Assembly (NCBI GenBank): GCA_964634945.1
Contig: CAZWMG010000009.1
Location: 1,954 to 65,953 of the forward strand
Source: an uncultured Planctomycetia bacterium
GTDB taxonomy: Bacteria > Omnitrophota > Gorgyraeia > JABMRG01
Reading direction: 5' to 3'
DNA length: 64,000 bases
Shown here: positions 1,505-60,899 of the stretch, one piece after another
Layout of the letters: every line of letters starts with the position of its first letter
Position numbering within the stretch: position 1 is the stretch's first letter
Notes under the pieces: model-generated
Told to the model about the DNA's origin: nothing
What the model saw: only the letters and a program-made list of their open reading frames with translations
Database searches by the model: none
Translations under genes and position numbers: made by a program

Positions 1505-1506
1505 TG

Positions 1507-5339: not shown

Positions 5340-5386
5340 AGTTATAGATACATCCTAATCTTGATACAGTTAGAAACAGATAATAC

Positions 5387-5890: not shown

Positions 5891-5895
5891 GAAAA

Positions 5896-6480
5896 TTACC
5901 TCTCGCCTATCACATACACAGTAAGTGTCAGATCTACCATCAGACTAGTTGCTGTATCAATGTTTTTACTAATCTTGATATGATCTATGCTAGCAAGTAT
6001 ATTAAGACTATCCTGTATCTTTCTGGTATATTCCGCTAATGCCTTATATGAAGCACGTAACTGAAGGTCTATCTTTATGCTATCAAGCGGCCTCTTATCC
6101 ATATTGATGGGCTTACCATCATTATCAAGCGCCTGCACAGATTGTGTGGGCCTTATGCTCACCACCTCAAGGCCGGAGGCCTGCGCTAAACTTGAGAGTT
6201 CTGAGACTATAGATGATATCTGTTTCTTTGTGGGCAACCTCTTCTCAAAAAGCTTCATCTCCTGCTGCATCTGACCTAATAGAGGGCCTAACTTCTCTAT
6301 GTCTCCAAGCATCGCGTTTGCAAAACCTATCTGGCTTTCTATATCATTAATCTCTCCTCTGAGCCGCGCTACCTCCTGATGTTGAGGAATATAAACAAGA
6401 ACAGAAAAGAGTATAATAAAAACAAGCATGATAGTCATGCCAACATATTGCTTTTTATCTTTTAATTTTGGTTTGCTCAC
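5896..6480 (-). CDS. pilO: Type IV pilus assembly protein PilO
   Basis: Single N-terminal TM, then a coiled-coil and ferredoxin-like periplasmic domain. It sits between the pilM-pilN fusion and pilP and overlaps the upstream gene by 4 nt (ATGA). Confidence 0.7.
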   Translation of the reverse strand: MSKPKLKDKKQYVGMTIMLVFIILFSVLVYIPQHQEVARLRGEINDIESQIGFANAMLGDIEKLGPLLGQMQQEMKLFEKRLPTKKQISSIVSELSSLAQASGLEVVSIRPTQSVQALDNDGKPINMDKRPLDSIKIDLQLRASYKALAEYTRKIQDSLNILASIDHIKISKNIDTATSLMVDLTLTVYVIGER

Positions 6481-8162: not shown

Positions 8163-8176
8163 TTAATTCATACCTT

Positions 8177-8398
8177 TTAATATGGGGATAACCTTCGTGC
8201 AATAAGCGATAAACCAAAAAAAGCCGCGCTGAAAAGAAGGCAGATACCAAGGCCTATTCGATACCTTATCGCTTTTTCATCGATATCCGTGGCAACGGTA
8301 TTGGCCCAATCGGTCATGCTTACAAGCAACTTAGGAAACAATATAAACATTATTCCAAATAAAAACGCTATGCAGCCCGCGAATATGAAAAATACCAA
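8177..8398 (-). CDS. Small two-TM membrane protein (73 aa), hypothetical
   Basis: It has two hydrophobic helices and sits between pilM-pilN and the YfhO-like gene. There is no homology I can name, so coding status is uncertain. Confidence 0.35.
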   Translation of the reverse strand: MVFFIFAGCIAFLFGIMFILFPKLLVSMTDWANTVATDIDEKAIRYRIGLGICLLFSAAFFGLSLIARRLSPY

Positions 8399-8483
8399 GA
8401 TAACCCCTTTTTATTCTTGTCCTTGAGACTATAGTTATAAAATTATGGGCTTCTTTTAATTATAAATTTATTATACTCAATAT

Positions 8484-17452: not shown

Positions 17453-18688
17453 CTACCTTTCGTCTCCTCGCAGGTCCTTCGGCAAGAGAATATTAAACCT
17501 GCACCCTTTTCCAGGCTTGCCTATTGCCCAGATTCTACCATTATGCATATCGATTATCTCTTTGCATATAACAAGGCCGAGGCCTGTCCCTTTTGCCCCT
17601 TTTGCAGTGGCATCGAGACGCTCAAACTTATTAAATAGCTTCGATATATCCTTCTTTCTTATGCCCACACCGGAGTCCCGTACGCTAATTAGAACATTTT
17701 TATCGCGCTTCTTTACTATTACGCCTATTCTACCGCCTTCGGCTGTAAACTTAAGTGCATTACTTAAAAGATTATTTATAACCTGTGTAATTCTATCGTG
17801 ATCTGCCCATACCTTAGAATATGTTATTAAAAAACTCGTCTTTATTTTTATTGCTTTTTTTTCAGCGACAGGTTTTATAAAATCCACGCAATCTGTTATA
17901 AGCTTTTTGATGTCCAGATAGGTCCTCTCCAGAGGCACCCTTCCTGCCTCAAACTTCGCGAGATCAAGTAGCGAATCAAGCAACGCGTCAAGCCTCTCTA
18001 TGTTCCTGCCGGCCATTTCCATAAGATGTTTTTCTCTGCTATTGGCGTTTCCGTCTATTCCTTCTGAGGCAAGTAATATGGAATCCTTGATTATAGCTAG
18101 GGGAGTTTTTAACTCATGGGATATATTTGATACAAAATCAAGCTTAAGACCCGCAAGCCTTTTTGCCTCCTCATAAATAAGGGCGTTTTGTATGGCAAGG
18201 CCTGTCTGTTCAGAGACAAGGGTCAAAAGCGCTAAATCTTTATCATCAAAATTTAATTTAGCTTTCTTGTTATTTACATTGATAACACCTATAACCTTGC
18301 CTCCAACCTTAAAAGGTACGCTAAGGAGTGAATTTGTCACATATTTCCTGCTCTTGGCCTTGCTACGTTTTTTAAACCTGCTATCTTGTGAAATATCCTT
18401 GACCAAAAGCGATTTGCCCTCCTTAGCTACCCAGCCGGATATACTTTCTCCAATCTTGACCCTTGTCTGTTTTACGATATCCGCGTCCAGGCCGCTTGCC
18501 TTCTTAATAAAAAGTTCCTGCCTCTTCTCATCAACTAACATAACCGAACCCACTTCAGTACCTAAAATATCTGAAATCCTTCCCAATATAGTAGATACAC
18601 ATTTTTCCGTATCCATGGAAGAATGGGCCTCTTTTGTGAGCTCAAATACGGTAATGAGCTTAGGTCCGGATATACCTTTATAATTCAT
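17453..18688 (-). CDS. Cytoplasmic sensor histidine kinase (GAF + HisKA + HATPase_c)
   Basis: No TM segment. GAF-like N-terminal domain, H-box SHELKTPL, N/G1/G2 boxes (NLLSNALKF, DSGVGI, GTGLGL). It overlaps the upstream RR gene by 4 nt. Confidence 0.85.
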   Translation of the reverse strand: MNYKGISGPKLITVFELTKEAHSSMDTEKCVSTILGRISDILGTEVGSVMLVDEKRQELFIKKASGLDADIVKQTRVKIGESISGWVAKEGKSLLVKDISQDSRFKKRSKAKSRKYVTNSLLSVPFKVGGKVIGVINVNNKKAKLNFDDKDLALLTLVSEQTGLAIQNALIYEEAKRLAGLKLDFVSNISHELKTPLAIIKDSILLASEGIDGNANSREKHLMEMAGRNIERLDALLDSLLDLAKFEAGRVPLERTYLDIKKLITDCVDFIKPVAEKKAIKIKTSFLITYSKVWADHDRITQVINNLLSNALKFTAEGGRIGVIVKKRDKNVLISVRDSGVGIRKKDISKLFNKFERLDATAKGAKGTGLGLVICKEIIDMHNGRIWAIGKPGKGCRFNILLPKDLRGDER

Positions 18689-19101
18689 CGTTTTTTCTCT
18701 CGCTCCTTGTCACCGGATTCGCCCTTATACATCCTGGAAACCCTTATAACGTTGGTAATATTAGCAACCTCTTTCTTCAAATCAGAGGTCTTGACGATAA
18801 AACCTGAAACATTATATTGTTTTGCTTTTTTAAAACGGTCTTCATTGGAAAACGCTGTAACGATAAAAACAGGAAGATCCTTGTTGTGTTTTCTGATCTT
18901 TTTCAAGACCTCCAATCCATCCATTCCGGGCATAAAGACATCAAGCAAAACCGCGTCCGGAGCGTAGGCCTCAATATGGGCTAACCCCTCCTTGCCGTTA
19001 ATGGCTGTAATCACATCATATCCATTATCCTGTAGGCGCATCTTTACAAGCTCTGCAAACTCAGGCTCATCATCTACTATTAAAACTTTTAACTTTTCCA
19101 T
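18685..19101 (-). CDS. Single-domain response regulator (receiver only)
   Basis: LIVDDEPEF...VLLDVFMPGMDG...VFIVTA...FIVK receiver motifs. It is translationally coupled to the downstream kinase. Confidence 0.85.
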   Translation of the reverse strand: MEKLKVLIVDDEPEFAELVKMRLQDNGYDVITAINGKEGLAHIEAYAPDAVLLDVFMPGMDGLEVLKKIRKHNKDLPVFIVTAFSNEDRFKKAKQYNVSGFIVKTSDLKKEVANITNVIRVSRMYKGESGDKEREKKR

Positions 19102-19191
19102 ATCCTTCTCCTTGTTAATGTTACAAATGTTAAAAAGATTACAAAGGCTACAGATCTTATAAAAAATTAGACGTTAATAAAATCTTTTAGC

Positions 19192-21924
19192 TTATACAAC
19201 AACTCTCCTATCTGCCCCCTTTAAACCCTTCTTTGGTATAGAAAATTTAAATACAGCCCCTTTATTTGCAGCGCTCTCTACATCTATAGTTCCCCCATGC
19301 ATATGGACGAGTTTTTTCACTATAGATAGGCCTAACCCTGTGCCCTGAGCTCCGGGGCCTACATTCCTGTTTACCTGTTGAAATTTTAAAAATACCTTTG
19401 GAATATCCTGTTCTGAGATCCCAATACCCGTATCAGAAACAGTTATCCAGACAACATCTTTATCATCTTTCAAGTCTAACTTTATACTGCCTTTATCTGG
19501 TGTATATTTTATTGCATTGGACAAAAGATTATTTAAGATCTCTATCATCTTGTCTCTGTCAGCATATATATCTATACTCTTTTTTGGAATTGAGAAGGCC
19601 AGTCTCTGCTTCTTCTTATCAGATTCAAACTTCCAAATACCAGCAATCTCTCTTATGAGGGCTGTAACAGAAAAGGTGGATCTAATAAGCTCCATCTTTC
19701 CTGACTCTATCTTGGCTATATCCAGAAGATCATTGATGATTCGTGACAAACGATCAACATTATCCTTACTCATATTAAGAATATTCCTCTGCTTATCGTT
19801 TATCTTACCTGGTATACCATCTAATATAAGCGATATTCCTTCTTTCGTAATAGATAGCGGCGTCCTGAGCTCATGAGATACCGTAGATATAAAATCATCT
19901 TTTAACTGATCTATCTTCTTTCGTTCGGTTATGTCGCGAAATATATGCACAGAACCGGTCAGTTCACCCTTATCATCAAATATAGGTGATGAAGTAGCTG
20001 AAAAAAGGATTCCTGTAATTGGGTCATCAACCTCTTCTGTGTGCGACTTTTTGTCTTTCTTTGTCTTTTCAAATGGGCACATACGCCATGGCTTATTCAT
20101 ATTATGCAGCACCTCATAGCACTGTTTGCCGATAATCTCTTCCGGACTTTTATTAAGCATATCGAACATGGTTTTGTTCGCTTTAATAATTTTATGCTCC
20201 ACATCCTGTATAAATATCATATCTGTTATCGAGTCGAATGTCCTTTGCCATTGTTCTGCCGCATCTGATATAGCCTGTTCAGCCTTCTTGCGCTTGGTAA
20301 TATCGCGCATAACACACTGAATTGCTTTCACCTTGTCATGCTCGACGAGCGGCATTCCTGTTACTTCCACATAAAAAGGGGCTCTATTTTTTGCTTTATA
20401 AAGAAATTCGATGTTTCTCGGTTTTTTTTCACGCAAGATTATACCTAACACACGTACGGTGCGCAATAATTCCTCTTTATGGACAAAATATTTGGTAATA
20501 AAATTCCCTATCTCTTCTTCCGCGTTATATCCACCGAATTTTTTTATTGCCGGGCTGCAATATTCAAGCACTCCCTTTGAAGATATCCTTATTACCACAT
20601 CACTGAGGTTTTCTGTTAGCAAGCGATATTTTTCTTCACTTTCCCTTAATGCTAATTCAGCCTTTTTGTGCGCTTCGATCTCTTTATTTAATGTATCTAT
20701 CGAAGCGGTACTCTCTTTAAGGTTGCCGGCCATAGCATTAATCGAATCGGCAAGTAAACCAAATTCATCTGATGAGCGCACATCTATCCTATAATCAAGA
20801 TCGCCCTCTCCTATACGCTTGATGCCCGCTACGATCTTATTAATAGGTTTGATTAAAATAGTACCAAATATAAAACCTAAGACTATAAGCACAATCGTCA
20901 GTATTCCGAGGGCAGAAATTTCTTGTGCAGCAAACAATAATAATGGACTAAAGACTTCATCTATATCCTGTCCTATAAATACCATCCACTCTATATCACT
21001 GGTTAAAAGAGTGCTGCTATCTACCTTTGCGTATGAGATAAAGATATTGCCATCATGAACATGGGGGGAATTGACAATAGCTGTACCGGAAACCTTGCCC
21101 CTTATATCTCTCCAATCCTCTATGTTGTTTAAAAAAAATTTTCCGAGGTTTTTAAAATCCTTGTGAAATACCATAAGGCCATCCCGGTTAACCAATACAG
21201 CATGGCCTGTCTCTTTAAATTTAAAATCAGCAACAGGAGCAAGGACTCTTTTAGCATGCAATACGATCTTGTATGCGCCTATTATATTGTCCGATCTATC
21301 AGTTATTTGGGCAGCCAATACAAAACTTAATGTATTAGAAGATTCATCGTGCTTGACTCCGATAACATATACCTCTTCTGCATTGGGCCTGAATAACTGC
21401 TCACACCATTCTTCATCGGCCTGATAAAAATCTGTGGTCTTGGCAGAAGCGGCAACGAGTCCGCCAAATCTATTAGTGACCAATATCTCCGCAATATTTT
21501 TGTCTTTCTCCATAATGCTTTTAAGCTCTTCTGCTATGGCATTTTCTGTATATTTTTTTACAAGGTCACTCTCGTCCGCGGATGCTTGCCACTGTTTATC
21601 CATCTCCGCAAAATAGGCTATTCGCTTGTCTGCTTGTTTATTTTCAAGCATTAAATTTTCAGATACAATAGTATCTATCCACGTAAGGTTTGAAGTGTGA
21701 ATTTTTAAATCGACAATCTCCTCATTTACGATTCTTGCGACAGCAGATGAAAGCTGATTAGCTATCTCCTGGCTCTCTTCACTTATAATCCTGCGCAATA
21801 AATTATAGTCATTCATATAGCTGATCACTGTATCTACGCAGATTATTGTAAACGCGACAAAACATATTACAAAGATTACCTTGAATTTTATGCTTAGGCC
21901 TCTACGCTTCTTCCACTTATTCAT
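19192..21924 (-). CDS. Membrane sensor histidine kinase with periplasmic Cache-like domain, HAMP, two PAS domains, HisKA and HATPase_c
   Basis: Two TM helices bracket a periplasmic domain of about 300 aa. HAMP region, two PAS/PAC regions (one with the Cys motif KQCYEVLHNMNKPWRMCPF), H-box SHELRTPL, and G-boxes. It overlaps trxB by 8 nt. Confidence 0.85.
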   Translation of the reverse strand: MNKWKKRRGLSIKFKVIFVICFVAFTIICVDTVISYMNDYNLLRRIISEESQEIANQLSSAVARIVNEEIVDLKIHTSNLTWIDTIVSENLMLENKQADKRIAYFAEMDKQWQASADESDLVKKYTENAIAEELKSIMEKDKNIAEILVTNRFGGLVAASAKTTDFYQADEEWCEQLFRPNAEEVYVIGVKHDESSNTLSFVLAAQITDRSDNIIGAYKIVLHAKRVLAPVADFKFKETGHAVLVNRDGLMVFHKDFKNLGKFFLNNIEDWRDIRGKVSGTAIVNSPHVHDGNIFISYAKVDSSTLLTSDIEWMVFIGQDIDEVFSPLLLFAAQEISALGILTIVLIVLGFIFGTILIKPINKIVAGIKRIGEGDLDYRIDVRSSDEFGLLADSINAMAGNLKESTASIDTLNKEIEAHKKAELALRESEEKYRLLTENLSDVVIRISSKGVLEYCSPAIKKFGGYNAEEEIGNFITKYFVHKEELLRTVRVLGIILREKKPRNIEFLYKAKNRAPFYVEVTGMPLVEHDKVKAIQCVMRDITKRKKAEQAISDAAEQWQRTFDSITDMIFIQDVEHKIIKANKTMFDMLNKSPEEIIGKQCYEVLHNMNKPWRMCPFEKTKKDKKSHTEEVDDPITGILFSATSSPIFDDKGELTGSVHIFRDITERKKIDQLKDDFISTVSHELRTPLSITKEGISLILDGIPGKINDKQRNILNMSKDNVDRLSRIINDLLDIAKIESGKMELIRSTFSVTALIREIAGIWKFESDKKKQRLAFSIPKKSIDIYADRDKMIEILNNLLSNAIKYTPDKGSIKLDLKDDKDVVWITVSDTGIGISEQDIPKVFLKFQQVNRNVGPGAQGTGLGLSIVKKLVHMHGGTIDVESAANKGAVFKFSIPKKGLKGADRRVVV

Positions 21925-22879
21925 TTTTGCTATATACCTCCCCTTTCAACTGTTCGATATATTGCTGGCAGCTGTAAGCTGCTAAAGCACCGTCACCACA
22001 GGCTGTTACAATCTGCCTGAGACTGGTATCCCTGCAATCGCCACAGGCAAAGATACCAATATTAGATGTATTCAAGGCTCTATCTGTTGCTATATGGCCA
22101 TCACTGTCTAGATCAACTATACCACTTATGAAATCTGTATTTGGAGTGTGCCCTATGGATATGAATACGCCCTCACATCTAATCTCACTGAAAGTGCTTT
22201 TAGATAGATCCTTAAGCTTTATACCTGAGGCCTTATCGTCACCTAATATCTCTTCTGCAACAGAGTTCCAAATAACCTTTATCTTCGCGTTAGACAGCGC
22301 CTTATCCTGTAATATCTTCACGGCCCTTAAAGCGTTTCGTCTGTGCACAATGTAGACCTTGCTAGCAAATCTTGTTAAAAATAAAGCCTCTTCAACAGCT
22401 GAATCTCCGCCCCCTATCACAACTATATCTTTATCCTTAAAAAATAGTCCGTCGCATATAGCGCAATATGACACGCCTCTTCCGGATAGCCTTTCCTCTC
22501 CAGGTATGTCAAGTCTTCTAGCGCTTACTCCTGAAGCGACTATTACTGATAAAGCCTGGTATCTATTATCGTCAAGTACTACACTCCATATATTCTGGTT
22601 TCCCTGATTATCCTGTTCTATACTTTTTACATGGCCGGAAATAATCTGTCCACCAAAAGAGATTACCTGCTCTTTTTCATTTTTCAAAAGGTCTGCGCCG
22701 CTTATACCTTCAGGAAAACCCGGAAAATTATCTATTAAAGCCGCGTAACCTGCCTGACTTAATACCGATGGGTCTTCAACTATAAGAATCCTTAATCGCG
22801 CCCTTAGCGCATACATAGCGGATGTTAGCCCTGCCGGGCCTGCCCCTATTATTATTATGTCATATGTATTCATACGCAT
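21917..22879 (-). CDS. trxB: Thioredoxin reductase TrxB
   Basis: FAD motif IIIGAGPAG, redox-active CAIC-DG, NADPH motif VVIGGGDSAVEEA; 320 aa. Confidence 0.85.
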   Translation of the reverse strand: MRMNTYDIIIIGAGPAGLTSAMYALRARLRILIVEDPSVLSQAGYAALIDNFPGFPEGISGADLLKNEKEQVISFGGQIISGHVKSIEQDNQGNQNIWSVVLDDNRYQALSVIVASGVSARRLDIPGEERLSGRGVSYCAICDGLFFKDKDIVVIGGGDSAVEEALFLTRFASKVYIVHRRNALRAVKILQDKALSNAKIKVIWNSVAEEILGDDKASGIKLKDLSKSTFSEIRCEGVFISIGHTPNTDFISGIVDLDSDGHIATDRALNTSNIGIFACGDCRDTSLRQIVTACGDGALAAYSCQQYIEQLKGEVYSKNE

Positions 22880-22917
22880 TATCCTAGCTTAGTTATAAGT
22901 ATTAAGAATTAAGCAAC

Positions 22918-22996
22918 AAACCTAATCCTTAAATTCTAAATCCTAAGTTCTAAACTCTAAATAATATCAAATTACCAAAATTCAAATGCTCAAAAC
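22918..22996. repeat. 79-bp intergenic repeat element, copy 2 (upstream of trxB)
   Basis: aaacctaatccttaaattctaaatcctaagttctaaactctaaataatatcaaattaccaaaattcaaatgctcaaaac, with 6 mismatches versus 13132-13210. Confidence 0.7.
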
Positions 22997-23040
22997 GTTA
23001 AAAAGTTTTAAAAGTATAAAACATTGTAATCTGTTGTTTT

Positions 23041-23085
23041 TTGCAACCTTTGCAACTTTTGTAACATTTGTAACTTTTGTAACTA
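23041..23085. repeat. Array of 9-bp direct repeats (ttgcaacct/ttgtaacat type), related to the array at 15696-15741
   Basis: ttgcaacctttgcaacttttgtaacatttgtaacttttgtaac gives five tandem 9-mers. The spurious ORF 22986-23231 translates it as TFATFVTFVTFV. Confidence 0.65.
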
Positions 23086-23190
23086 CGCTTTTTTCTTTGC
23101 AGTCCTATCTTTTCCTTAATCCTTGCTTCTCGTCTCTTGCTTTCCTCTACCTTCACCTTCACCTTACATCTTACATCCGGCATCTAACAT

Positions 23191-23964
23191 CTAGAACTTG
23201 CATCTGCGCTTTGATGTGGCACTCTTGCTAATAGGCCTTATCTTTTTTTTCTTTTTTGTATCATATACAGTGGTAAATCGCACACCCCTAAAATAGGGCT
23301 TTATCATCTCAATATCTCTTCTGCTAACAGGCCTGGCACCCGATGGCCTTAATGGTGTATTTATATGGACGTGGTCAGGCTTAATAGATCTCGCAATATC
23401 AGCTATTGCTTTCGCATGCCCTATATTACTTCTTAGAAGCATGATCTGCAAAATAAGCCTACCTTTATATCGGCGCCTAAACGATCTCATGCCTCTAAGC
23501 AGTTTATGGAATTTTAAAGACTTAACGGGCCTGTTTACTTTATCTAGAATAATATCAGATGAAACGTCCAGCTTTACCTCTACCAGATCCACGCCAGAGA
23601 GTTCCTGTTGAACATCTTTTCTTCCCAAAAGCGTAGCGTTAGTAAGGACCGCTATTCGTTCTTTTCTTACACGTTTTATTATCCTTATCAGCGTACCGAG
23701 ATTTTTTGCCAGTGTGGGTTCACCTGTTCCTGAAAAAGTAATATAATCAAGCTTTCTATCAGGCAGTGATTTTATCTCAGTGATGATATCCTTTGTAGGA
23801 ACAAATATCTTTCTTCTTAGCGCTATGGGATTATGTCTGCCAACCTGACAATATACGCAGTCAAAGGTACATATCTTACGCTTGTGCGATAAAAGGTCTA
23901 TGCCCAAGGAGGCCCCTAGCCTCCATGAATTAACCGGTCCATATATGTACTTATATGTTTTCAT
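23191..23964 (-). CDS. Radical SAM domain protein with a highly basic C-terminal tail; specific function unknown
   Basis: CTFDCVYC (CxxxCxxC) 4Fe-4S/SAM motif near the N-terminus, glycine-rich SAM motif FSGTGEP, and C-terminus KKKKKIRPISKSATSKRRCKF. Its start overlaps the stop of the upstream kinase gene by 1 nt. Confidence 0.7.
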   Translation of the reverse strand: MKTYKYIYGPVNSWRLGASLGIDLLSHKRKICTFDCVYCQVGRHNPIALRRKIFVPTKDIITEIKSLPDRKLDYITFSGTGEPTLAKNLGTLIRIIKRVRKERIAVLTNATLLGRKDVQQELSGVDLVEVKLDVSSDIILDKVNRPVKSLKFHKLLRGMRSFRRRYKGRLILQIMLLRSNIGHAKAIADIARSIKPDHVHINTPLRPSGARPVSRRDIEMIKPYFRGVRFTTVYDTKKKKKIRPISKSATSKRRCKF

Positions 23965-25598
23965 TAACTTCCCTTAACTCCGCTTGTCTTTGCCTTTGTC
24001 TTTTTCCTATGCTTAGGTAGAACGAATACGACCCTTGTCCCTTTTTTCGGTGCAGCCTCGGCCCATATACTGCCATCATGGAGCTCAACGATACTTTTGG
24101 CTATTGAAAGCCCTAAGCCTGTTCCTTTTTCCGTATTCGTAGCACTGTTTCCGAGCTGTTTAAACTTATCAAACATCCTTAATAAGCCTTCTTCTGAAAC
24201 ACCTATACCCGTATCACTTACATAGCATTCTATTAAATCGGATTTGCTCTTAACGGATATTGTTACGCAGCCTTCTTGTGTAAATTTAAGCGCGTTTCCA
24301 ACCAGGTTTGTAAAAACCTGCGTTATCTTGTCCGGGTCAGCAAATATGTCCACCCTTTTATCCGGGGTATCCGCCTTGATATCTACGCCTTTTTTAAACG
24401 CGGCAGGTTTGAAAAAGGAGGCAACATCTTTTATAATATGGGCTAAGTCGACAACCTCTTTCTTGAGCTCTTCCTTGCCTGCCTCTATCTTTGATATATC
24501 GAGCAGGTCGTTTATTATCCGGGATAGCCTGTCAATATTATTTTTTGCCATAACAAGAACTTCCTCTTGTTTTTTATTTGTATCACCGGGTATCTTGTCC
24601 AGAACAAGGTTTATGCCCTCCTTGGTTATGGTAAGAGGCGTACGCAATTCATGCGAAACCGCAGAAAGAAACTGTGTCTTTAGCTCATCTAGCTTTTTAA
24701 GTTTTTTGTTCTTTTCCTCCAACTCTTTATAAAGGAGCCTGACGCCTTCGTTTGTCTTCTTAAGCCTCCATGCCTGCTCTGCTAATTGTGCCCTGTTTTC
24801 CTCCAACGCCCTCTCCGCTAATTTTCTATCAGTTACATCACGGACTGTTGTATGCAGGACATATTTACCTTTTAATAACATCTTAACCAATATCACATCC
24901 GCAAAAAAGTCTTTTCCGCCTATTTTTCTGTGTTTCCATTCAAAAAAGTGTAATCCACGCTTCATGGCCCTTGTCATCATCTCATTCGCCTTTGCTGAAG
25001 ACAAGCTACCGTCAGGCTGGTATTCGGGTGACAGGTCTGCCGGTGTCTTGGAGCAAAATTCCTTCTCATTCTTACATCCGAAGAGTTTTATAGCAGCGGG
25101 ATTCCCGCTAATAAACCTCTTTCCCGGTGCTAGTATGATAATGGCGTCTTTGGATGTCTCATAAAGCGCTTTATGCCTAAGCTCGCTTTCATACAAAGCA
25201 TCTGTTATTTTATTATATCTTGAGATATCTTTACATATATGTATACTACCGGCGAGCTTGCCTTCACTATCAAATATAGGTGAGGCTACAGCCGATAAGG
25301 CCCTATCCGTATGTGAGGTAACAATTTTCCCCATATGAGGCTTATTATCCTTTTTTACCTTTTTAAGTAGGCACCCACACCAGGGTTTATCTGAATTTCG
25401 GATTAGCTTAAAACACTTTTTACCGATAATCTCTTTCATGCTTATTTTTACTAATTTCGCAAAGGCCCTATTAACCTTTATAATCGTAAAATCATTATCC
25501 TGAATAAATACAGGGTCTGCCATCGCGTCAAAGGCGCTTATCCATTTACCAACTAACCATGCCTTATCATTTATCACGTTACTTTTTTTTGATTTCAA
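23964..25598 (-). CDS. Cytoplasmic PAS-PAS sensor histidine kinase
   Basis: Two PAS domains, the first with the Cys motif KKCFKLIRNSDKPWCGC paralogous to that in the 19192-21924 kinase. Coiled-coil, H-box SHELRTPL, HATPase_c G-boxes. Confidence 0.85.
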   Translation of the reverse strand: MKSKKSNVINDKAWLVGKWISAFDAMADPVFIQDNDFTIIKVNRAFAKLVKISMKEIIGKKCFKLIRNSDKPWCGCLLKKVKKDNKPHMGKIVTSHTDRALSAVASPIFDSEGKLAGSIHICKDISRYNKITDALYESELRHKALYETSKDAIIILAPGKRFISGNPAAIKLFGCKNEKEFCSKTPADLSPEYQPDGSLSSAKANEMMTRAMKRGLHFFEWKHRKIGGKDFFADVILVKMLLKGKYVLHTTVRDVTDRKLAERALEENRAQLAEQAWRLKKTNEGVRLLYKELEEKNKKLKKLDELKTQFLSAVSHELRTPLTITKEGINLVLDKIPGDTNKKQEEVLVMAKNNIDRLSRIINDLLDISKIEAGKEELKKEVVDLAHIIKDVASFFKPAAFKKGVDIKADTPDKRVDIFADPDKITQVFTNLVGNALKFTQEGCVTISVKSKSDLIECYVSDTGIGVSEEGLLRMFDKFKQLGNSATNTEKGTGLGLSIAKSIVELHDGSIWAEAAPKKGTRVVFVLPKHRKKTKAKTSGVKGS

Positions 25599-25718
25599 GA
25601 TCTTATTCCCCTAAAGTATCTGTTTTGCAACTTCAATCAAAGCGAAAAAATCACTAGTCTTAGCGCAATAATCATCCGCCCTTACCTTTTTTACCTCTAT
25701 CTTTACCTGTGTTCTCTT

Positions 25719-26336
25719 TTACGCACTCCTTAAAAACCACACTCCCAATAATATCAGGAACGCGGAAAAGACTCTTACAAGTTTTTTGTACAAGCTATCG
25801 CTAAGATACTCTTTGCCCTTATACGTGGCATAGGAGATGAACCAATACCAGAGCATATCGGCCATCCAGTGGCCAAGAATAAATACTGTCACACCTAAGA
25901 TTCCTGAAAGTAATGCTTTTGCGATTGTTGAAATGCCTATTGTGGCCCACCAGATTATAAATCCCGGGCTCGCGATACTAAAAAAAATACCGCCTATAAA
26001 CAGTCCTTTGCTAAAACCCTTGCGATGTTTTTCATCATTTATCTTAAGGCTCGATACCCTGATAAAAAGTATGCCGCCCATAGTGATAAGAGCTAATCCG
26101 CCTATGGCTGATATCCACCATAAAACAATCTTTGATGTAAAAACTCTATGCAGCCCAAAAACTAAAATACCTATTATAATAGCTTCTATGGCCATATGGC
26201 CCAATATAACTCGGAATCCAACAGTGTTATCAGACTTTAATGTTTCTGATACAGTAAAAAAAGTCAATGGCCCGGGTATCATGGCCCCTGTTATACCTAT
26301 TATAAACCCTGTAAAAAATAATAGTAGTATATTCAT
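25719..26336 (-). CDS. LysE/RhtB-family small amino-acid exporter-like membrane protein
   Basis: 205 aa with 6 TM helices and an N-terminal GAMIPGPLTFFTV motif characteristic of LysE-type translocators. Assigned from pattern only. Confidence 0.55.
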   Translation of the reverse strand: MNILLLFFTGFIIGITGAMIPGPLTFFTVSETLKSDNTVGFRVILGHMAIEAIIIGILVFGLHRVFTSKIVLWWISAIGGLALITMGGILFIRVSSLKINDEKHRKGFSKGLFIGGIFFSIASPGFIIWWATIGISTIAKALLSGILGVTVFILGHWMADMLWYWFISYATYKGKEYLSDSLYKKLVRVFSAFLILLGVWFLRSA

Positions 26337-26858
26337 ATAATAAATCGAATTTAGTTTCTATGCACAGCGCATATCACTAAATTTCATATCAGTGGGGATA
26401 ATACCATACAACGCAACCAATACCTCTAGCGCCTAACCGCGGTTTGACAGGTATTTTCTTACCAATCCTACTTTTGTAAAATCAGAATCCAGCATTTTTA
26501 CTTACCAGGTATAGAAAAAATGCCTCATCATAAACTGTTATATCACTCACATTAAAGCCATGGTATGATGAGGCACATTAAAATTGCCTTATATTCTATT
26601 TTTTCCGCTATATTATAAATGCTACTTGTATATACTCGCAGTAATCACTATGACGCTCTCTATCTCCTAAAATCTTCTCTTTTTTCGAAACTTTACATCA
26701 GCCTTTTGCTTAACAGATGTACCAATATGCCCGCGCGTACTATGCTAACAACGCCTGTAGCAATATACTATATAACAACTAATAAGGGCGTGGGTTACTC
26801 TCTGCAATTAGTTTGAACACTATATGCGGTAAAAATAAAGCTAAAATTGGACATTAAA

Positions 26859-27227
26859 TTATGGCAATAATCTTTTTATGTTATCAAGCAATACCTTGGG
26901 GTCAAAAGGCTTGGTTATGTACGCATCCGCGCCAACCTCCATCCCTAAATCCTTGTCAGAACTTTGACTCCGTGCCGTAAAAAGTATAATAGGGATCTTC
27001 TTGTAGCGCTCATCAAACTTAAGCATCCTGCAAACCTTGTACCCGTCTATCCTTGGTAACATAAGATCAAGAATAATAAGATCAGGCATCTCTTTCTTCG
27101 CTGTGTCCAGAGCCTGCTGCCCATCAGAAGCAACCAGAACCTCGTAACCTTCTGCCTCTAATCTCATCCTGACCAATGCTACAATATCTTCTTCATCATC
27201 TACTACAAGTATCCTGTGTTTAGCCAT
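26859..27227 (-). CDS. Single-domain response regulator (receiver only)
   Basis: ILVVDDEEDI...LIILDLMLPRIDG...IILFTAR...YITKPF, a complete CheY-like motif set; 122 aa. Confidence 0.85.
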   Translation of the reverse strand: MAKHRILVVDDEEDIVALVRMRLEAEGYEVLVASDGQQALDTAKKEMPDLIILDLMLPRIDGYKVCRMLKFDERYKKIPIILFTARSQSSDKDLGMEVGADAYITKPFDPKVLLDNIKRLLP

Positions 27228-27313
27228 ATAAGTCTCCTGTATATATATTATTATAAATTACAGTATATATAAACACTCAGATTATGTCAAATAGATAAAA
27301 CATAAAAAATGTC

Positions 27314-28834
27314 TTATTTTTTACTGATAGGCAGGGCTACAGATACAGTAGTACCTTGAGATTTTTTACTAATTATATCTATTTTACCTCTGTGTAAGTT
27401 TATAATCTGCTTGCATACTGTCAAGCCTAATCCTATGCCCTTTGCTTTTGTTGTAAAAAATGGCTCAAAGAGTTTGCCAAGATCACTTTTTGAGATTCCG
27501 GGGCCATTATCCTGAAAATCTATCCTGAAGCTGTTGTCTCTCTTATTGTAATAACTCTGTACTTTTATCGCGCCTTTTTTGCCGTAAAAAGATTGGTAAG
27601 CATTATCCAATATGTTAGAAAATAGACTGGTTATATGCACCGGATCCGCTTCTATCCTGTCTCCTTTTTTGCATTCACAACTTATCCCTACCTCTACATC
27701 ATAAGCACTATATTTAGCTCTAAAGTTACGTATACATTCCGCAATTAAATCGCATATTAAAATTGTCTGGTACTGAGGGACCATAACCTTTGAATAACTT
27801 AATAGGTTTTTTATAATAATATCACTCTCAATAATCTTCTTATCTATGTTATTCAGATGACTAGCGATAGATTTATCCTTAGTCTTATGCTTTATATTGT
27901 AAACAGCTGTTCTTATAACACCAAGCGGATTTCTGAGCTCATGCGCGATCGTAGCGGCAAGGGCACCTATATCAGCTAAACGTTTTGATTCCTCAAGATC
28001 TTTATGAACCGAAATAAGCTCCTTAGTCTTTTTTTCAACTTCTATTTCAAGATTGCTTTTTAAATTACGCAGCGCCTCTTCTGCTTTTTTGCGTTTTGTA
28101 ATATCAGTATCAGTACCTCTGTACCCGAGGAGCTTGCCTGATTTACTTAAAATCGGCAAACCGCTTGTTTCCAAATATACTATGTACCCATCTTTATGCA
28201 AATTCTTATTGACAAACCCCCTGAAGGCTTTCTTTCTGCTAAAGACATCTAATGCTTTTTTGCTTAACTTCTCTTTTGTTCCCGGAGCAAAAAGATTATA
28301 AAAATACTTCTTCCCCACAAGCTCGCTTGGTTTATAGCCAAGGATATTTTGAACCATAGGGCTTACATAGGTATATAGTCCGGTTGTGTCGACCTCCCAT
28401 ATCCAACCACCGGCGGTTTCGGCAACCTGCCTAAAACGTTCTTCGCTTATCTGGAGCACTCTTTCCGCTTCTTTATATTCTGTAATATCCCAGAATATAC
28501 CAAAAACACCTACTATATTATCTTCGTTATCCCGCAAAGGGGCTTTTAATGTATGTATAATTTCCTCTATGCCGTCTTTTATATACTTCTCCTCTAGCTC
28601 TCTTGCCTTACCCCTGCGCATTATAGCCTTATCATCTGACCTATACTTCTCTGCTAATTTTTCCGGAAAAAAATCGTAATCCGTCTTTCCTTTTATCTGC
28701 GCTGGCTTAATCTTAAGGTCTTTAGCATAACTCTCATTACACAGCAGGTAGATAGATTTTAAATCCTTGTAAAATATTTTATGGGGTATATTATCAAAAA
28801 GTGTCTTGTATATATAGGTAGTATTTTTTGGCAT
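27314..28834 (-). CDS. Cytoplasmic PAS-PAS sensor histidine kinase
   Basis: Two PAS/PAC domains, H-box AHELRNPL, N-box NILDNAYQS, G-boxes DNGPGI / GIGLGL. There is no TM segment. Confidence 0.85.
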   Translation of the reverse strand: MPKNTTYIYKTLFDNIPHKIFYKDLKSIYLLCNESYAKDLKIKPAQIKGKTDYDFFPEKLAEKYRSDDKAIMRRGKARELEEKYIKDGIEEIIHTLKAPLRDNEDNIVGVFGIFWDITEYKEAERVLQISEERFRQVAETAGGWIWEVDTTGLYTYVSPMVQNILGYKPSELVGKKYFYNLFAPGTKEKLSKKALDVFSRKKAFRGFVNKNLHKDGYIVYLETSGLPILSKSGKLLGYRGTDTDITKRKKAEEALRNLKSNLEIEVEKKTKELISVHKDLEESKRLADIGALAATIAHELRNPLGVIRTAVYNIKHKTKDKSIASHLNNIDKKIIESDIIIKNLLSYSKVMVPQYQTILICDLIAECIRNFRAKYSAYDVEVGISCECKKGDRIEADPVHITSLFSNILDNAYQSFYGKKGAIKVQSYYNKRDNSFRIDFQDNGPGISKSDLGKLFEPFFTTKAKGIGLGLTVCKQIINLHRGKIDIISKKSQGTTVSVALPISKK

Positions 28835-28841
28835 ATCTATC

Positions 28842-29249
28842 TCATTGGATAGATTTCTCTATCAAGTGTATTACATCAAGCGGATTAATGGGTTTGATAA
28901 GGCGGTCCTTGATATTACACATCTTAAGAAGCAGCGAATGCTCCTGATGCGTAAAGACGCCTGTGATAGCGATTATGGGGATCTCTTTAGTCTCTGGCTT
29001 TGACATTAGTTCATTGGCAACCTTGAAGCCGCTCTTCTTGTCCATCTTAAGATCAAGCAATATAATATCAGGACTTGCCTGAATTATCTCCTCAGTCACA
29101 TCGACACTCTCTGAAGCAGCTACCGGATAATAACCTGTTAACCTTAATATCTCAACCATCTCATCAAGAAATTCCTTGTCATCATCTACAACCATTACCT
29201 TCCTCTTCTTCTTCTCCTTCTTCTTCTTAGTCTCCATAAAACCCTCCAA
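28842..29249 (-). CDS. Single-domain response regulator with a poly-Lys N-terminal extension
   Basis: The N-terminal KKKKEKKKRK is encoded by a purine/pyrimidine tract. It is followed by VMVVDDDKEF...IILLDLKMDKKSG...IIAITGV receiver motifs. The start could be M1 or M5. Confidence 0.8.
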   Translation of the reverse strand: MEGFMETKKKKEKKKRKVMVVDDDKEFLDEMVEILRLTGYYPVAASESVDVTEEIIQASPDIILLDLKMDKKSGFKVANELMSKPETKEIPIIAITGVFTHQEHSLLLKMCNIKDRLIKPINPLDVIHLIEKSIQ

Positions 29250-29251
29250 GG

Positions 29252-29812
29252 CTATCTTAATGCACCCTTTACAGTCTTGATAAGCCTCTCAATATCTACC
29301 GGCTTTGGTATATATTCTTTTACCCCGCATGCCTTAATCTTTTTTATCTCCTCTTTTGAGTTTAGGATAGTAACCGCGAAGATCGGTATATTGCTGGTGT
29401 CTTCGTACATATGGAGTATCTTGCATACTTCAAAACCATCAAGCCCGGGCATCTTAAAATCTAAAAGTATTAAGGAAGGCCTCTTTGTGTATATCTTTCT
29501 GCCTGCCTCAAAACCATTTGACGCGAAATCAAGGTTAAAACCATTATTCCCAAGCGCGACTTTAAGCTCCTCTAGAAACTCTATATCATCATCTACTATA
29601 AGTATCGTCTTCTTTCCTGCCAAGAGTTTATCAGGTATCGGTATCTGATACTTTTTCATAAATTTTATAAGATCATCTTCGGCTATGCGCCTGTGACCTC
29701 CCGGGGTAGAGTAGGCTCTAAGTTTGTCCTCGTTTATCCAGTTTATAACTGTTGTATGATGAACACTACATAACCTTGCTGTCTGATGCGTCGTAAGAAT
29801 TTTGTGAGCCAT
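29252..29812 (-). CDS. HTH (MerR/excisionase-type) plus C-terminal receiver-domain protein (inverted response-regulator architecture)
   Basis: N-terminal LTTHQTARLCSVHHTTVINWINEDKLRAYSTPGGHRRI is an excisionase/MerR-like HTH. The C-terminal 120 aa are a receiver domain (ILIVDDDIEF...LILLDFKMPGLDG...IFAVT...YIPKP). Confidence 0.75.
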   Translation of the reverse strand: MAHKILTTHQTARLCSVHHTTVINWINEDKLRAYSTPGGHRRIAEDDLIKFMKKYQIPIPDKLLAGKKTILIVDDDIEFLEELKVALGNNGFNLDFASNGFEAGRKIYTKRPSLILLDFKMPGLDGFEVCKILHMYEDTSNIPIFAVTILNSKEEIKKIKACGVKEYIPKPVDIERLIKTVKGALR

Positions 29813-32088: not shown

Positions 32089-33852
32089 TTAGTTATTATA
32101 CTTGCGCAAGCAAATATAGTCAATCAGAAAAAAAGCCACAACAAGAAAACAGAACATAACAAATATATCACCAAATCTAGTATAGAACGTAAGCAATGTA
32201 TCCGGATAGATCGTGACAAGAGATGTCTTATGTCCTGGCACAAAAATATCTTCTCCTCTAAACTCTACCCTAGCGTATATCATGCCTGTTCTATCGATAA
32301 AACAGGATAGTCCTGTATTCGCGCTACGCACAAAAGGCCTCCTGTTCTCTACTGCCCTGAAGACAGAATTTGAAGCGTGCTGATAAGCCGCACACGTCTT
32401 ACCGAACCAGGCGTCATTTGTTATATTAACCATAAAAAAAGCGCCTCTTTTTACAAACTGCCTGACCAAATCAGGGAAGATATCCTCAAAACATATGAGC
32501 ACGCTAAAATATAGAGGGGGCACTCCTTTTTCTTGATATTCCTTATCGCGCAAAGAATAGGGCTGTCCCCTTAATGGAAGCTGAAATACTGTATACTCAC
32601 TTCCTGGTATAAATTTTCCTGTTAAAGGCAGAATATCGTAAACCCAGGAAAAATATCTACTTAAGGGGATAAACTCTCCAAATAGCACTAGATGCAATTT
32701 ATTGTACTGTTTTACGATCTTGCCTTGTTTTGAAAATAAAAGAGCGCTATTATAATCACTACTATATCCGCTACTCTCCGTTGCGATAAGCGGTGTTCCC
32801 ACAAGTATTGGTATCTTGACCTTTTTGGCAAGGCCTTGGACATACTCCATAAGGCGCCTATCTCTATCCGGATAACCCGGAACGGAAGTCTCCGGCCATA
32901 TGATTATATCCGGCTTATCACCTGCCGCATCGATGGTAAGCCTTTTATATTGAGCCAGAATATAATTTCTGTATGCAGAGTCCCATTTATGCGACTGCTT
33001 AATATTGGCCTGTACAACTGAGACCTTAATGGTTTTTACAGGTATAGAATTCTCAGTAAGCGCGTCTATCCTTCTATATCCATACACGAGCACGAAAATT
33101 AGAACCGGAAAAACAACAAGAACTTGAAACAGGGGGTGCCCATTAATTTCCTTCTTAAAGGGTATCCTTGATTTCGCGAAAAAACTGCTGTTCTCTTTCC
33201 GGCATCTTATTCCCATCTTCACAACAGTAAATACTGTAAAATTTACCAATACCATTAGAAAAGATACCCCGTACGCACCTAATATGTCCGCTATCTGTAT
33301 TACCGGGAGATTCTCATACTGCGAATACGCCAATAGGTTCCAACCTATGCCACCGCCTATGTGCGAACGAAGGTATTCTAAAAGGCACCATGCAGCTGGG
33401 ATAATAACGTATTGCGCATTACCTGGACCGAGCGGAGTCGCGTGGCGTGTTACCTGGACCGAGCGGAGTCGCGTGGCGTGTTGCGTTTGTGTACACGACG
33501 CACGGCCCCGTAAAACTCCCTCAGAGCAACGGGGCAAGCGCATGACACACGACGAAAACAACCCAAAGACTCCGAAATAGAGCCCCTGGTACAGAGATAA
33601 TATTATCCATCCGGTTACGGTTACACTGACAAGCCAATACATGGAAAGAAAAAAGAATAAAAAACCACAGGCGCATGATAAGAGAAAAGCGCTTTTAGCG
33701 TCCTTTTCCTGTAACGCAAAAAAAAGCGGGACAAGCCCGATCCATGCAAAATAAGAAAGATTAAATGAGGAAAAACTAAGGGATAAGATTGCCGCTGAAA
33801 TAATAGCAGGCAAGTAACGATAGAGAATATCTGAAACGCGCGACACAAACAT
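32089..33852 (-). CDS. lnt: Apolipoprotein N-acyltransferase Lnt, carrying an in-frame 46-aa insertion encoded by a repeat element
   Basis: N-terminal TM domain with the conserved IPAAWCLLEYLRS...GWNLLAYSQ segment. C-terminal CN-hydrolase domain with IIWPETS, LICFEDIFP and NITNDAWFG motifs. Start is chosen at the ATG overlapping the secA stop (TAATG); the track's GTG at 33867 is an alternative. Confidence 0.8.
   Translation of the reverse strand: MFVSRVSDILYRYLPAIISAAILSLSFSSFNLSYFAWIGLVPLFFALQEKDAKSAFLLSCACGFLFFFLSMYWLVSVTVTGWIILSLYQGLYFGVFGLFSSCVMRLPRCSEGVLRGRASCTQTQHATRLRSVQVTRHATPLGPGNAQYVIIPAAWCLLEYLRSHIGGGIGWNLLAYSQYENLPVIQIADILGAYGVSFLMVLVNFTVFTVVKMGIRCRKENSSFFAKSRIPFKKEINGHPLFQVLVVFPVLIFVLVYGYRRIDALTENSIPVKTIKVSVVQANIKQSHKWDSAYRNYILAQYKRLTIDAAGDKPDIIIWPETSVPGYPDRDRRLMEYVQGLAKKVKIPILVGTPLIATESSGYSSDYNSALLFSKQGKIVKQYNKLHLVLFGEFIPLSRYFSWVYDILPLTGKFIPGSEYTVFQLPLRGQPYSLRDKEYQEKGVPPLYFSVLICFEDIFPDLVRQFVKRGAFFMVNITNDAWFGKTCAAYQHASNSVFRAVENRRPFVRSANTGLSCFIDRTGMIYARVEFRGEDIFVPGHKTSLVTIYPDTLLTFYTRFGDIFVMFCFLVVAFFLIDYICLRKYNN
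33420..33540. repeat. Repeat element inside the lnt ORF: 2 x 31-nt tandem repeat plus a hairpin core shared with 15532-15560
   Basis: tacctggaccgagcggagtcgcgtggcgtgt occurs twice (33420-33450, 33451-33481). Hairpin ccccgtaaaactccctcagagcaacgggg lies at 33506-33534. It is translated in frame as MRLPRCSEGVLRGRASCTQTQHATRLRSVQVTRHATPLGPGNAQYV. Confidence 0.75.
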
Positions 33853-50356: not shown

Positions 50357-50368
50357 TTTAATCTCCTT

Positions 50369-51916: not shown

Positions 51917-52000
51917 AATATAAGGTGCCTTTTCTGCTGTTCCCATCCTTGTTATATACATTTTCTTACCTTAATATAACATTTTAAAAGTCTTTGATTA

Positions 52001-52029
52001 AGTATACGTTATTTTTCGCTGTATGTCAA
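52001..52029 (-). promoter_or_regulatory. Consensus sigma70 promoter (TTGACA - 17 nt - TATACT) with upstream A-tract repeats, driving the 50369-51916 gene
   Basis: The minus strand reads cTTGACAtacagcgaaaaataacgTATACTtaatc, with -35 at 52029-52024 and -10 at 52006-52001. Upstream is atcacaaaaaa x2, UP-element-like. Confidence 0.55.
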
Positions 52030-52078
52030 GTTTTTTGTGATTTTTTTGTGATTTTTTGTTACATAGGCCTACTACATG

Positions 52079-52126: not shown

Positions 52127-52136
52127 AAGCTACAAT

Positions 52137-56990: not shown

Positions 56991-56992
56991 CT

Positions 56993-60898: not shown

Positions 60899-60899
60899 A

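Follow-up and report, generated by a model that had tools for sequence, protein, structure and literature searches.

A two-component gene island upstream of a type IV pilus ATPase gene in an uncultured Omnitrophota genome: a candidate pilus-associated module with exchangeable sensor kinases

A 64-kb stretch of contig CAZWMG010000009.1 (assembly GCA_964634945.1), analysed here over its whole length and referred to as the window (positions 1-64000), contains at 17453-29812 a 12.4-kb island of two-component signalling genes that ends 20 nt upstream of a gene for an ATPase of the PilB/GspE family. The main result of the analysis is a phylum-wide association, in Omnitrophota, of a stand-alone receiver (REC122, 122 aa, minus strand, 26859-27227), a second receiver (REC138, 138 aa, minus strand, 18685-19101) and exchangeable kinases with this ATPase gene, which heads a gene cluster resembling those for type IVa pili (T4aP). 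We propose that the conserved core of the island may be a pilus-associated two-component module, made up of REC122, REC138 and HisKA-type kinases with freely exchanged sensors, whose output-less receivers would tune the pilus motor; we give this reading a probability of about one half. The gene neighbourhoods described below support a connection between part of the island and the pilus system. The closest relatives of the ATPase are found in metagenome-assembled genomes (MAGs) of Candidatus Omnitrophota, and REC122 is 93% identical to a protein of Candidatus Orphnella occulta, which places the source genome in Omnitrophota, close to this organism.

The proteins encoded in the window were mapped on 151 related loci (given L numbers here where they need to be told apart), gathered with three independent seeds: the ATPase, a Cache kinase, and REC122 together with homologues of the radical-SAM protein of the island. 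A receiver gene was scored as REC122-type and adjacent if its product was at least 55% identical and if it lay within 900 bp upstream of the ATPase gene, among loci with enough upstream sequence. Such a gene is present in 8 of 12 Omnitrophota loci seeded with the ATPase, as against 0 of 59 from other lineages, and the same link recurs in about ten loci reached independently, with either the receiver or the Cache kinase as seed. In each of the four long contigs seeded with the receiver (L144-L147) it lies zero to two genes before the ATPase gene, in the company of kinases and of one to four further receivers. Four loci seeded with the Cache kinase (L083, L093, L105 and L128) share the order kinase, REC138-like receiver, REC122-like receiver, ATPase and PilC, and an array of receiver genes abuts the ATPase gene in two others (L094 and L106). 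The gap between receiver and ATPase genes is repeatedly about 40 bp, among loci whose ATPases are only 54-62% identical.

Across loci, the REC122-type receiver is the best-conserved component, at 62-75% identity; the ATPase reaches 54-62%, PilC 36-50% and the kinases 30-57%. More than 120 clusters match REC122 at 69% identity or more, and every named one is from Omnitrophota. REC122-type copies of at least 62% identity are all linked to the ATPase gene wherever there is enough downstream sequence. In many loci a REC138-like gene (34-55%) is also present upstream of the ATPase gene, together with the REC122-type one, and all receivers of the conserved core lack DNA-binding or enzymatic output domains. 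We refer to these proteins as the Omnitrophota pilB-linked REC122 family, a family defined from the REC122 of the window, whose own membership thus holds by construction. Its profile, with 42% of positions conserved at 95% or more, derives from a set chosen by similarity and was not used as evidence. The kinases of pil-linked modules elsewhere in the phylum feature sCache, CHASE or PAS domains, or a C-terminal GGDEF or PilZ domain. Fusions of kinases with GGDEF and/or PilZ, as well as REC-EAL genes, were noted at the ATPase gene in L142 (10383-11924), L145 (606-2546), L146 (3033-6556) and L147 (7383-8504).

Several observations weigh against this interpretation. The loci are MAGs and metagenome contigs, many of them truncated, and do not amount to a phylogenetically controlled survey; moreover, 4 of the 12 Omnitrophota loci seeded with the ATPase lack an adjacent receiver. 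The REC122 gene of the window points in the same direction as the ATPase gene but lies 9.4 kb upstream of it, and it is a kinase gene that abuts pilB; in Orphnella, REC122 is likewise displaced. Locus L150 features an orthologous module (REC 59%, radical SAM 60%, TrxB 63%, REC138 72% and GAF kinase 65% identical) followed by unrelated genes and no pil genes, and in L096 and L098, REC122-like genes (57-61%) with kinases of their own are followed by housekeeping genes. The preliminary description of the stretch had named islands unlinked to pil genes in relatives as the observation that would speak against its pilus connection; for the most part the relatives do not show this, with the REC122-type gene linked in the majority of Omnitrophota loci counted above and L150 unlinked. 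Conservation of the DHp (dimerisation and histidine phosphotransfer) domain above that of the catalytic (CA) domain, considered as a sign that the kinases share one receiver, was dropped as an argument: all 20 pil-linked kinases show the pattern, and so do 42 of 45 unlinked ones, at equal medians, so that it is a family property and no evidence of convergence. Finally, the target of the receivers could be something other than the pilus motor.

All genes of the island lie on the minus strand and are given here in the direction of transcription. The first encodes a protein of 186 aa with an HTH_17 domain of MerR/excisionase-like type and a receiver domain (HTH-REC, 29252-29812; Pfam HTH_17 1.2e-10, Response_reg 1e-22), which is the sole DNA-binding protein of the island. 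It is closely packed, with gaps of 2-14 nt, with the genes for the receiver-only protein REC135 (28842-29249; 135 aa from a TTG start; Pfam Response_reg 2.2e-15) and for the cytoplasmic PAS-PAS-HisKA-HATPase kinase HK506 (506 aa, 27314-28834). REC135 is 84-89% identical to an Orphnella orthologue of 123 aa that begins at the internal ATG, suggesting that the real start of REC135 is the ATG 4 codons downstream of the TTG. HK506 has an H-box of NtrB/AtoS/PilS type (IAHELRNPL), and its best NCBIfam match is AtoS (208.5 bits, below the cut-off of 646). REC122 (Pfam 2.2e-30) follows, and then a non-coding gap of 522 bp with no open reading frame (ORF) inside (26337-26858), a gene for a LysE-family exporter (25719-26336; Pfam LysE 1.8e-22), the PAS-PAS kinase HK544 (544 aa, 23964-25598) and a radical-SAM protein of 257 aa with a CxxxCxxC motif (23191-23964; Pfam Radical_SAM 3.8e-16, with no NCBIfam equivalog). 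Beyond a second non-coding gap (311 bp, 22880-23190) lie trxB for thioredoxin-disulfide reductase (21917-22879; TIGR01292 360.6, cut-off 343.45), with a CAIC active site and the HRRxxxR motif in the form HRRNALR, and the gene for HK910, a membrane kinase of 910 aa with dCache-HAMP-PAS-PAS architecture (19192-21924). REC138 (Pfam 1.7e-28), which has a basic C-terminal tail and KT instead of KP, and the cytoplasmic GAF kinase GAF-HK411 (411 aa, 17453-18688) complete the series. Domains of the kinases were assigned with Pfam, and all four are of HisKA plus HATPase_c type.

The phospho-acceptor Asp and the Thr and Lys residues are intact in all receivers; in REC122 the key residues are D10, D11, D54, T84, Y103 and K106, and REC135 carries Arg in place of the aromatic switch residue. 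The nearest solved structures of the receivers are PleD-REC1, PhoP, RpaA, YycF and DivK, with CheY lower and neither PilG nor PilH among the 60 best matches listed. The DivK-like model NF045717 (cut-off 160) gave 80.4 for REC122, 65.4 for REC135 and 53.6 for HTH-REC, all below it. GAF-HK411 is 91% identical to its counterparts in L001 and L138 and 65% identical to that in L150, and a GAF kinase of 42% identity occupies the same position before the ATPase gene in L144.

The preliminary description, made from the sequence of the window, had listed the four kinases, the HTH-receiver protein, trxB and the radical-SAM gene correctly, together with four receiver-only genes, of which three lie in the island; the fourth, REC128 (128 aa, minus strand, 4953-5339), is found outside it, at the far end of the pilus cluster, and the LysE gene in mid-island had gone unmentioned. 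Its overlaps of 8 nt between trxB and HK910 (21917-21924) and of 4 nt between REC138 and GAF-HK411 (18685-18688) are confirmed, as is the position of the island directly upstream of pilB. The 4-nt overlap recurs in the gene calls of L138 and L150, where REC138 is 72-84% identical. The co-directional gene string that it had pointed out is real, and uninformative. All real genes of the window except BioY (93-710) are on the minus strand, so that co-directionality provides no evidence for an operon here, and the GC skew is negative over the whole window (1-64000); both are consistent with a location on one replichore with strong strand bias. The signalling genes are clustered: 8 of the 9 two-component genes of the window fall within the island, which takes up 19% of the window length, and a Pfam scan of the window ORFs detected no further kinase or receiver beyond those of the island and REC128.

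Comparison with the closest relatives indicates that the 12.4-kb stretch is a mosaic and not the single unit that had been assumed. In the Orphnella loci (L138-L140), the gene order is PrfB, SecA, Lnt, MFS transporter, HTH-REC, REC, HK506, REC122, LysE, radical SAM, TrxB, REC138, GAF-HK and ATPase. Flanks and anchor genes are thus shared with the window, and the kinase content differs although REC122 is 93% identical. Orphnella encodes a dCache kinase of 830 aa right after REC122, where the window has the 522-bp gap. A segment of about 3 kb (L138 10552-13541) stands in place of this gap; nucleotide alignment by blastn continues through 26678 and resumes at LysE, and the gap is a rearrangement scar. 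Orphnella lacks HK544. The C-terminal part of HK544 (approximately residues 120-533) is 72-73% identical to the 830-aa dCache kinase (82% at the DNA level over the aligned core), and the two genes lie on opposite sides of LysE, while the N-terminal PAS domain of HK544 is 41% identical to PAS2 of HK910. HK544 is, judged by these alignments, a chimera in which a foreign sensor sits on the DHp and CA domains of the Orphnella dCache kinase, an example of the exchange of sensor domains on a constant kinase core between near relatives. HK910 and HK544 are 70% identical in DHp and 37% in CA. At the position of HK910, Orphnella has a receiver-only gene, 41% identical to REC128, which overlaps a gene for a CheR methyltransferase (L138 16593-17683) with no gene for a methyl-accepting chemotaxis protein (MCP) nearby; four receiver-only genes are present in the Orphnella island. 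The order in L081 is REC122, radical SAM, TrxB, Cache kinase and REC138, with neither LysE nor HK544, and the Cache kinase is an orthologue of HK910 (57% identical) in the same position. HTH-REC, REC135 and HK506 were detected in the closest relatives only, always beside the MFS gene (L138-L141).

The preliminary description had further suggested a response to redox or small-molecule cues. The idea of trxB and the radical-SAM gene as a redox-sensing unit was rejected because both stand among housekeeping genes in L151, a complete Omnitrophota genome of 1.14 Mb, and because pil-linked modules elsewhere in the phylum lack the pair. In L151 the radical-SAM gene lies two genes from trxB, no signalling gene is close to them, and their neighbours are lgt, yggS, an inositol-phosphatase gene and pfk. 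The radical-SAM family is widespread (53-60% identical across Omnitrophota, also present in Atribacteria and Patescibacteria) and carries the JGI label "wyosine synthetase-like". Both genes are kept between the two receivers in L081, L138 and L150, and the overlap of trxB with a kinase gene is not kept, as a receiver gene follows trxB 81 nt downstream in Orphnella. We regard trxB and the radical-SAM gene as probable housekeeping passengers; a redox role for the two is conceivable but finds no support in these comparisons. The LysE gene, present in Orphnella and absent from L081, L150 and all other pil-linked modules, appears to be a passenger in a rearrangement-prone region.

Three sub-modules may be distinguished within the island on the basis of residue classes in receiver helix alpha1 and in DHp, and of gene overlaps. 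The alpha1 positions used, which we take to be determinants of kinase specificity, group REC122 with REC138 (L-M-R) and REC135 with HTH-REC (E-F-E, after a DDD acidic pocket), and the DHp domain of HK506 is only 25-30% identical to those of the other three kinases. From this we infer a sub-module A consisting of HTH-REC, REC135 and HK506, a sub-module B in which REC122 would pair with HK910 and HK544, and a sub-module C in which REC138 would pair with GAF-HK411. Sub-module A seems to be a separate branch of NtrB/NtrC flavour with its own DNA-binding output, confined to the closest relatives.

With regard to input, the dCache domain of HK910 points to an extracellular small-molecule ligand, and the GAF and PAS domains point to intracellular cues. 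A PAS subtype located beside the DHp helix is common to kinases of this set of loci, several of them pilB-linked, and carries the signature GKKC-x4-H-x8-CP-x11-H, with both Cys residues conserved in 21 of the 22 sequences compared and the first His in 20 of them. It is represented by PAS2 of HK910 (residues 553-672, 19909-20268), by PAS1 of HK544, and by sequences in L003, L004, L081, L105, L128, L145, L147 and others. A search of the Protein Data Bank (PDB) for this subtype returned a single weak match without the motif. The residues suggest a Cys2His2 metal site or a thiol site, and small-molecule or redox/metal sensing is a plausible role for the dCache, GAF and Cys/His PAS domains taken together. 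The Cys/His PAS domain is the sole feature that lends the redox idea some footing.

No CheA, CheW, MCP, Hpt, hybrid kinase or Spo0B-like protein was found among the window ORFs with Pfam. Since CheA, CheW, MCP, Hpt and hybrid kinases are all missing, the system would be neither of Chp type nor a phosphorelay, and the two corresponding claims of the preliminary description, a multi-kinase phosphorelay and control in the Chp manner, are not borne out; the window also contains no free-standing DHp protein, and the intergenic gaps of the island hold no ORFs. Free-standing ORFs of 75-78 aa with a HisKA domain only, i.e. DHp, were noted just upstream of receiver genes in L142 (9752-9979) and L144 (6313-6549), and these could encode phosphotransfer or phosphatase proteins.

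The proposed module could operate as follows. Kinases would sense extracellular ligands through dCache, and an intracellular ligand or the redox or metal state through GAF and Cys/His PAS domains, and would phosphorylate the two output-less receivers. One phosphorylated receiver, most likely REC122, would then bind the pilus motor (PilB, or else PilM or PilC) and tune pilus extension, with the second receiver serving as antagonist or phosphate sink. REC122 is favoured as the acting receiver because its gene normally abuts pilB, and direct action on the motor is inferred because precedents exist, in that PixG~P binds PilB1 and DrdR binds PilB and PilT. Overall, such a scheme would resemble PixG/PixH, PilG/PilH or DrdR, with classical kinases in place of CheA. 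A more specific and distinctly speculative version, which we hold to be rather improbable, has phosphorylated REC122 dock on PilB, perhaps on its MshEN-like N-terminus, where the residues for c-di-GMP binding have been lost, as a phylum-specific and CheA-independent form of steering, with swapped kinase sensors and metal or redox input through the Cys/His PAS domain. If this were true, attachment or predation could be adjusted, lineage by lineage, to the cues of the respective host or environment.

Other explanations were weighed against this one. The region from the MFS and tRNA genes to pilB could be a recombination-prone hotspot for signalling genes with no functional tie to the pilus, the receivers having other targets, for example as phosphate sinks or allosteric partners of their kinases, like DivK. 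The variable kinase content next to a REC122 of 93% identity, the embedding of trxB, the radical-SAM gene and LysE in the island, the unlinked module of L150, and REC122-like genes with kinases of their own in the non-pil contexts of L096 and L098 are all in its favour, and the genes of the window would be co-directional in any case. What a hotspot of this kind accounts for poorly is the adjacency of REC122-type and ATPase genes at about 40 bp in genomes with quite divergent ATPases, its restriction to Omnitrophota in the comparison with 59 loci of other lineages, and the ATPase linkage of every closely related copy with enough downstream sequence, so that we consider it unlikely. Less likely still is transcriptional control, in which HTH-REC would be the real output and would regulate the pil operon, possibly via arrays of 9-nt repeats described below, with the receiver-only proteins as sinks or connectors. 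HTH-REC is indeed the only DNA-binding protein of the island and is tightly packed with REC135 and HK506, and three 9-mer arrays occur in intergenic gaps of the same gene string, but pil-linked modules in the rest of the phylum do not contain HTH-REC, the DHp domain of HK506 is divergent from those of the other kinases, and exact arrays are lacking in the 147 related loci.

Regulation through cyclic di-GMP (c-di-GMP), with the kinases and receivers setting its level and the MshEN domain of the ATPase, or PilZ proteins, responding to it, as for Vibrio MshE and Thermus PilF, is a possibility to which we attach little weight. The ATPase does have an MshEN domain, kinases fused to GGDEF, GGDEF-PilZ or PilZ and REC-EAL genes lie beside the ATPase gene in L142 and L145-L147, and a stand-alone PilZ gene is present in the window. 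Pfam, however, identified no GGDEF, EAL or HD-GYP gene in the window, and the ATPase scores 29.7 with the MshEN c-di-GMP motif model NF053729, below its cut-off of 38. The c-di-GMP-binding pattern of the MshEN domain is RLG...Q. Geobacter PilB keeps these residues, but the window ATPase has others at the Arg-Leu-Gly and Gln positions of both half-motifs, as do most Omnitrophota orthologues. These residues are replaced even in the ATPases of L146 and L147, whose modules carry GGDEF and EAL genes, so that their loss does not follow the presence or absence of such genes in relatives. Least probable of all, and already contradicted in the features that define the family, is a reading along the lines of the original proposal, a single Chp or PilG/PilH-type phosphorelay with redox sensing by TrxB and the radical-SAM protein that controls twitching. 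It draws on the several kinases and output-less receivers upstream of pilB, on the 8-nt overlap of trxB with HK910, on the place of radical SAM and TrxB between the two receivers in L081, L138 and L150, and on the CheR gene of the Orphnella island. Against it stand the missing CheA, CheW, MCP, Hpt and hybrid kinase components, the unconserved junction of trxB with a kinase gene, the purely housekeeping surroundings of trxB and radical SAM in L151, and the different evolutionary ranges of the sub-modules.

The neighbouring ATPase gene (minus strand, 15747-17432) encodes MshEN and T2SSE domains (Pfam T2SSE 4.5e-146, MshEN 4.7e-22). Its product scores just below the cut-off of the PilB equivalog TIGR02538 (663.5 versus 675.65) and above that of the GspE model TIGR02533 (659.4 versus 630.25), and its N-terminal domain matches PilF and PilB structures better (E 1.9e-33 to 8e-25) than that of the ATPase XpsE of the type II secretion system (2.7e-7). 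Assignment to the PilB/GspE family with the label pilB, as used previously, appears fair, with the reservation that the profile scores straddle the two cut-offs. The cluster that it heads (4953-15459, all on the minus strand) is T4aP-like in its predicted content: downstream of the ATPase gene come a protein of 255 aa without assigned family, an N_methyl protein of 261 aa and a second protein without family of 191 aa, followed by PilC/GspF (T2SSF, 11830-13041; Pfam/NCBIfam), two pilin-like genes (10943-11786), YfhO (8484-10859), a PilM-PilN fusion (6477-8162), PilO (5896-6480), a PilP/GspC-like protein (5387-5890) and, at the end, REC128, which has DG for DD in its acidic pocket. A matching gene set follows the ATPase gene in Omnitrophota relatives, and the terminal receiver is also found in L005 and L007. 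Neither PilT nor a secretin was recognised in the window.

Tandem arrays of a 9-nt unit were detected with Tandem Repeats Finder (TRF) at three intergenic sites of this gene string: after the ATPase stop codon (15697-15741, minus strand, about 5 copies of a GGTTACAAA-like unit), between the radical-SAM gene and trxB (23039-23084) and, in inverted orientation, between HK910 and REC138 (19120-19152). On the gene strand the unit reads GGTTACAAA or GTTACAAAA, and a pattern search gave 8 matches compared to 0.02 expected. As candidates for conserved operator sites these arrays were rejected, given that exact arrays occur in 0 of 147 related loci. In the comparison with Orphnella, no alignment was obtained for the spacer that separates trxB from the radical-SAM gene, although the gap before REC138 falls within an aligned block. 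The repeats could constitute a protein- or RNA-binding array. Other tandem repeats, with periods of 7, 14 and 21 nt, are found in spacers of the pilus cluster (11778-11834 and 13317-13371) and upstream of trxB (22921-22962), for example GGATGC-type units on the gene strand upstream of pilC. Scans for promoter-like sites (57, with 43.9±6.4 expected) and terminator-like sites (10, with 10.4 expected) were uninformative; the best sigma-70-like match of the region, a consensus match only (11 of 12 positions, 27290-27262), is just upstream of REC122. An Rfam search identified three tRNAs only (His, Arg and Pro), just upstream of the island, and no riboswitch or leader in the island.

Some further features of the window deserve mention. 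Beyond the pilus cluster, at 986-4131, lie genes for a DUF5752 protein, a TreT-like glycosyltransferase, a DsbD-type membrane protein and an AhpC/TSA-redoxin, thus a second thiol-redox gene set 18 kb from trxB. The lnt gene (32089-33867) contains a perfect 31-nt GC-rich tandem duplication (2.1 copies, 33419-33482) that leaves the ORF open and sits in about 100 nt that are extra relative to Orphnella, in the N-terminal domain of apolipoprotein N-acyltransferase. The stand-alone PilZ gene (44544-44912), 27 kb upstream of the pilus cluster, is adjoined by genes for ComEC (45036-46610) and ComEA (46597-46959), and this group may have a connection with pilus-mediated DNA uptake. Genes for large proteins, most of them with no Pfam family (851, 530, 1341, 1301, 264, 431 and 275 aa), follow one another over 47801-63957, which may represent a secretion or adhesion locus; it includes a TPR protein of 1341 aa with internal 30-nt repeats (55501-55676), a protein of 1301 aa with PKD domains, and a GspC-like protein with PDZ and T2SSC domains (56295-56990).

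Omnitrophota are uncultured and mostly ultra-small, and their T4aP are believed to serve for attaching to host cells or preying on them (Seymour et al. 2023). T4aP clusters were reported in nearly all members of the phylum and read as attachment or symbiosis devices (Seymour et al. 2023). Two-component regulators of Omnitrophota pili are not described in that study, in a 2026 preprint with 176 complete genomes, or in the literature retrieved by full-text searches, and surveys that seek only PilG, PilH and PilR can lead to the view that such lineages do not regulate their pili. The proposed module offers concrete candidates for the decision to extend a pilus, namely REC122 with its D54, REC138, and the dCache and Cys/His PAS sensors, which can be tested as purified proteins without culture.

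Control of type IV pili by response regulators is already well known, and the Omnitrophota arrangement would be a variation on this theme. The closest parallels in terms of mechanism are post-translational. In the Tax1 system of Synechocystis, two response regulators are fed by one kinase, PixL, and act on the T4aP motor: PixG~P binds PilB1 (and PilC), with PixH as antagonist or phosphate sink (PMC11181946). PixL, however, is a CheA-type kinase with an MCP-like photoreceptor and PixG has a PATAN output domain, whereas several HisKA kinases and bare receivers are predicted here. The Pil-Chp system of Pseudomonas likewise relies on antagonistic single-domain receivers, PilG and PilH, which control type IV pili without binding DNA (PMC10519157), but it requires ChpA (CheA-like, with multiple Hpt domains), PilI (CheW), PilJ (MCP), PilK and ChpB, none of which is encoded in the window. 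In Xanthomonas, the output-less receiver protein DrdR binds to PilB and PilT and stimulates the ATPase activity of both (PMC13507683); it is a tandem REC-REC orphan that includes a pseudo-receiver, and its gene does not lie beside pilB, in contrast to the single receivers found here beside pilB together with kinases.

Two further systems resemble the island in other respects. The pilB-pilT-pilC-pilS-pilR-pilA clusters of Geobacter, Myxococcus and Pseudomonas also contain a two-component system inside a T4aP cluster, HK506 shares the NtrB/PilS-type H-box, and a kinase core similar to that of HK506 follows pilB-pilB-pilT-pilC in WOR-3/Stahlbacteria loci (L018-L024). PilR, however, is an activator of the pilin gene with REC, sigma54-AAA+ and HTH domains, and a regulator with an AAA+ domain or Fis-type HTH is missing here; no Sigma54_activat/AAA+ domain was detected with Pfam or NCBIfam in any receiver protein of the window, and the conserved Omnitrophota module, situated upstream of pilB, lacks a DNA-binding output. 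In Caulobacter, finally, several classical kinases, DivJ and PleC among them, converge on one stand-alone receiver, DivK (with PleD), that acts by protein contact and affects pilus biogenesis, and the best solved matches of REC122 include PleD-REC1 and DivK. REC122 differs from DivK in its score with the DivK-like model, half of the cut-off value, and in the lack of a visible cell-cycle context, and the Caulobacter pilus is of Tad/Cpa type.

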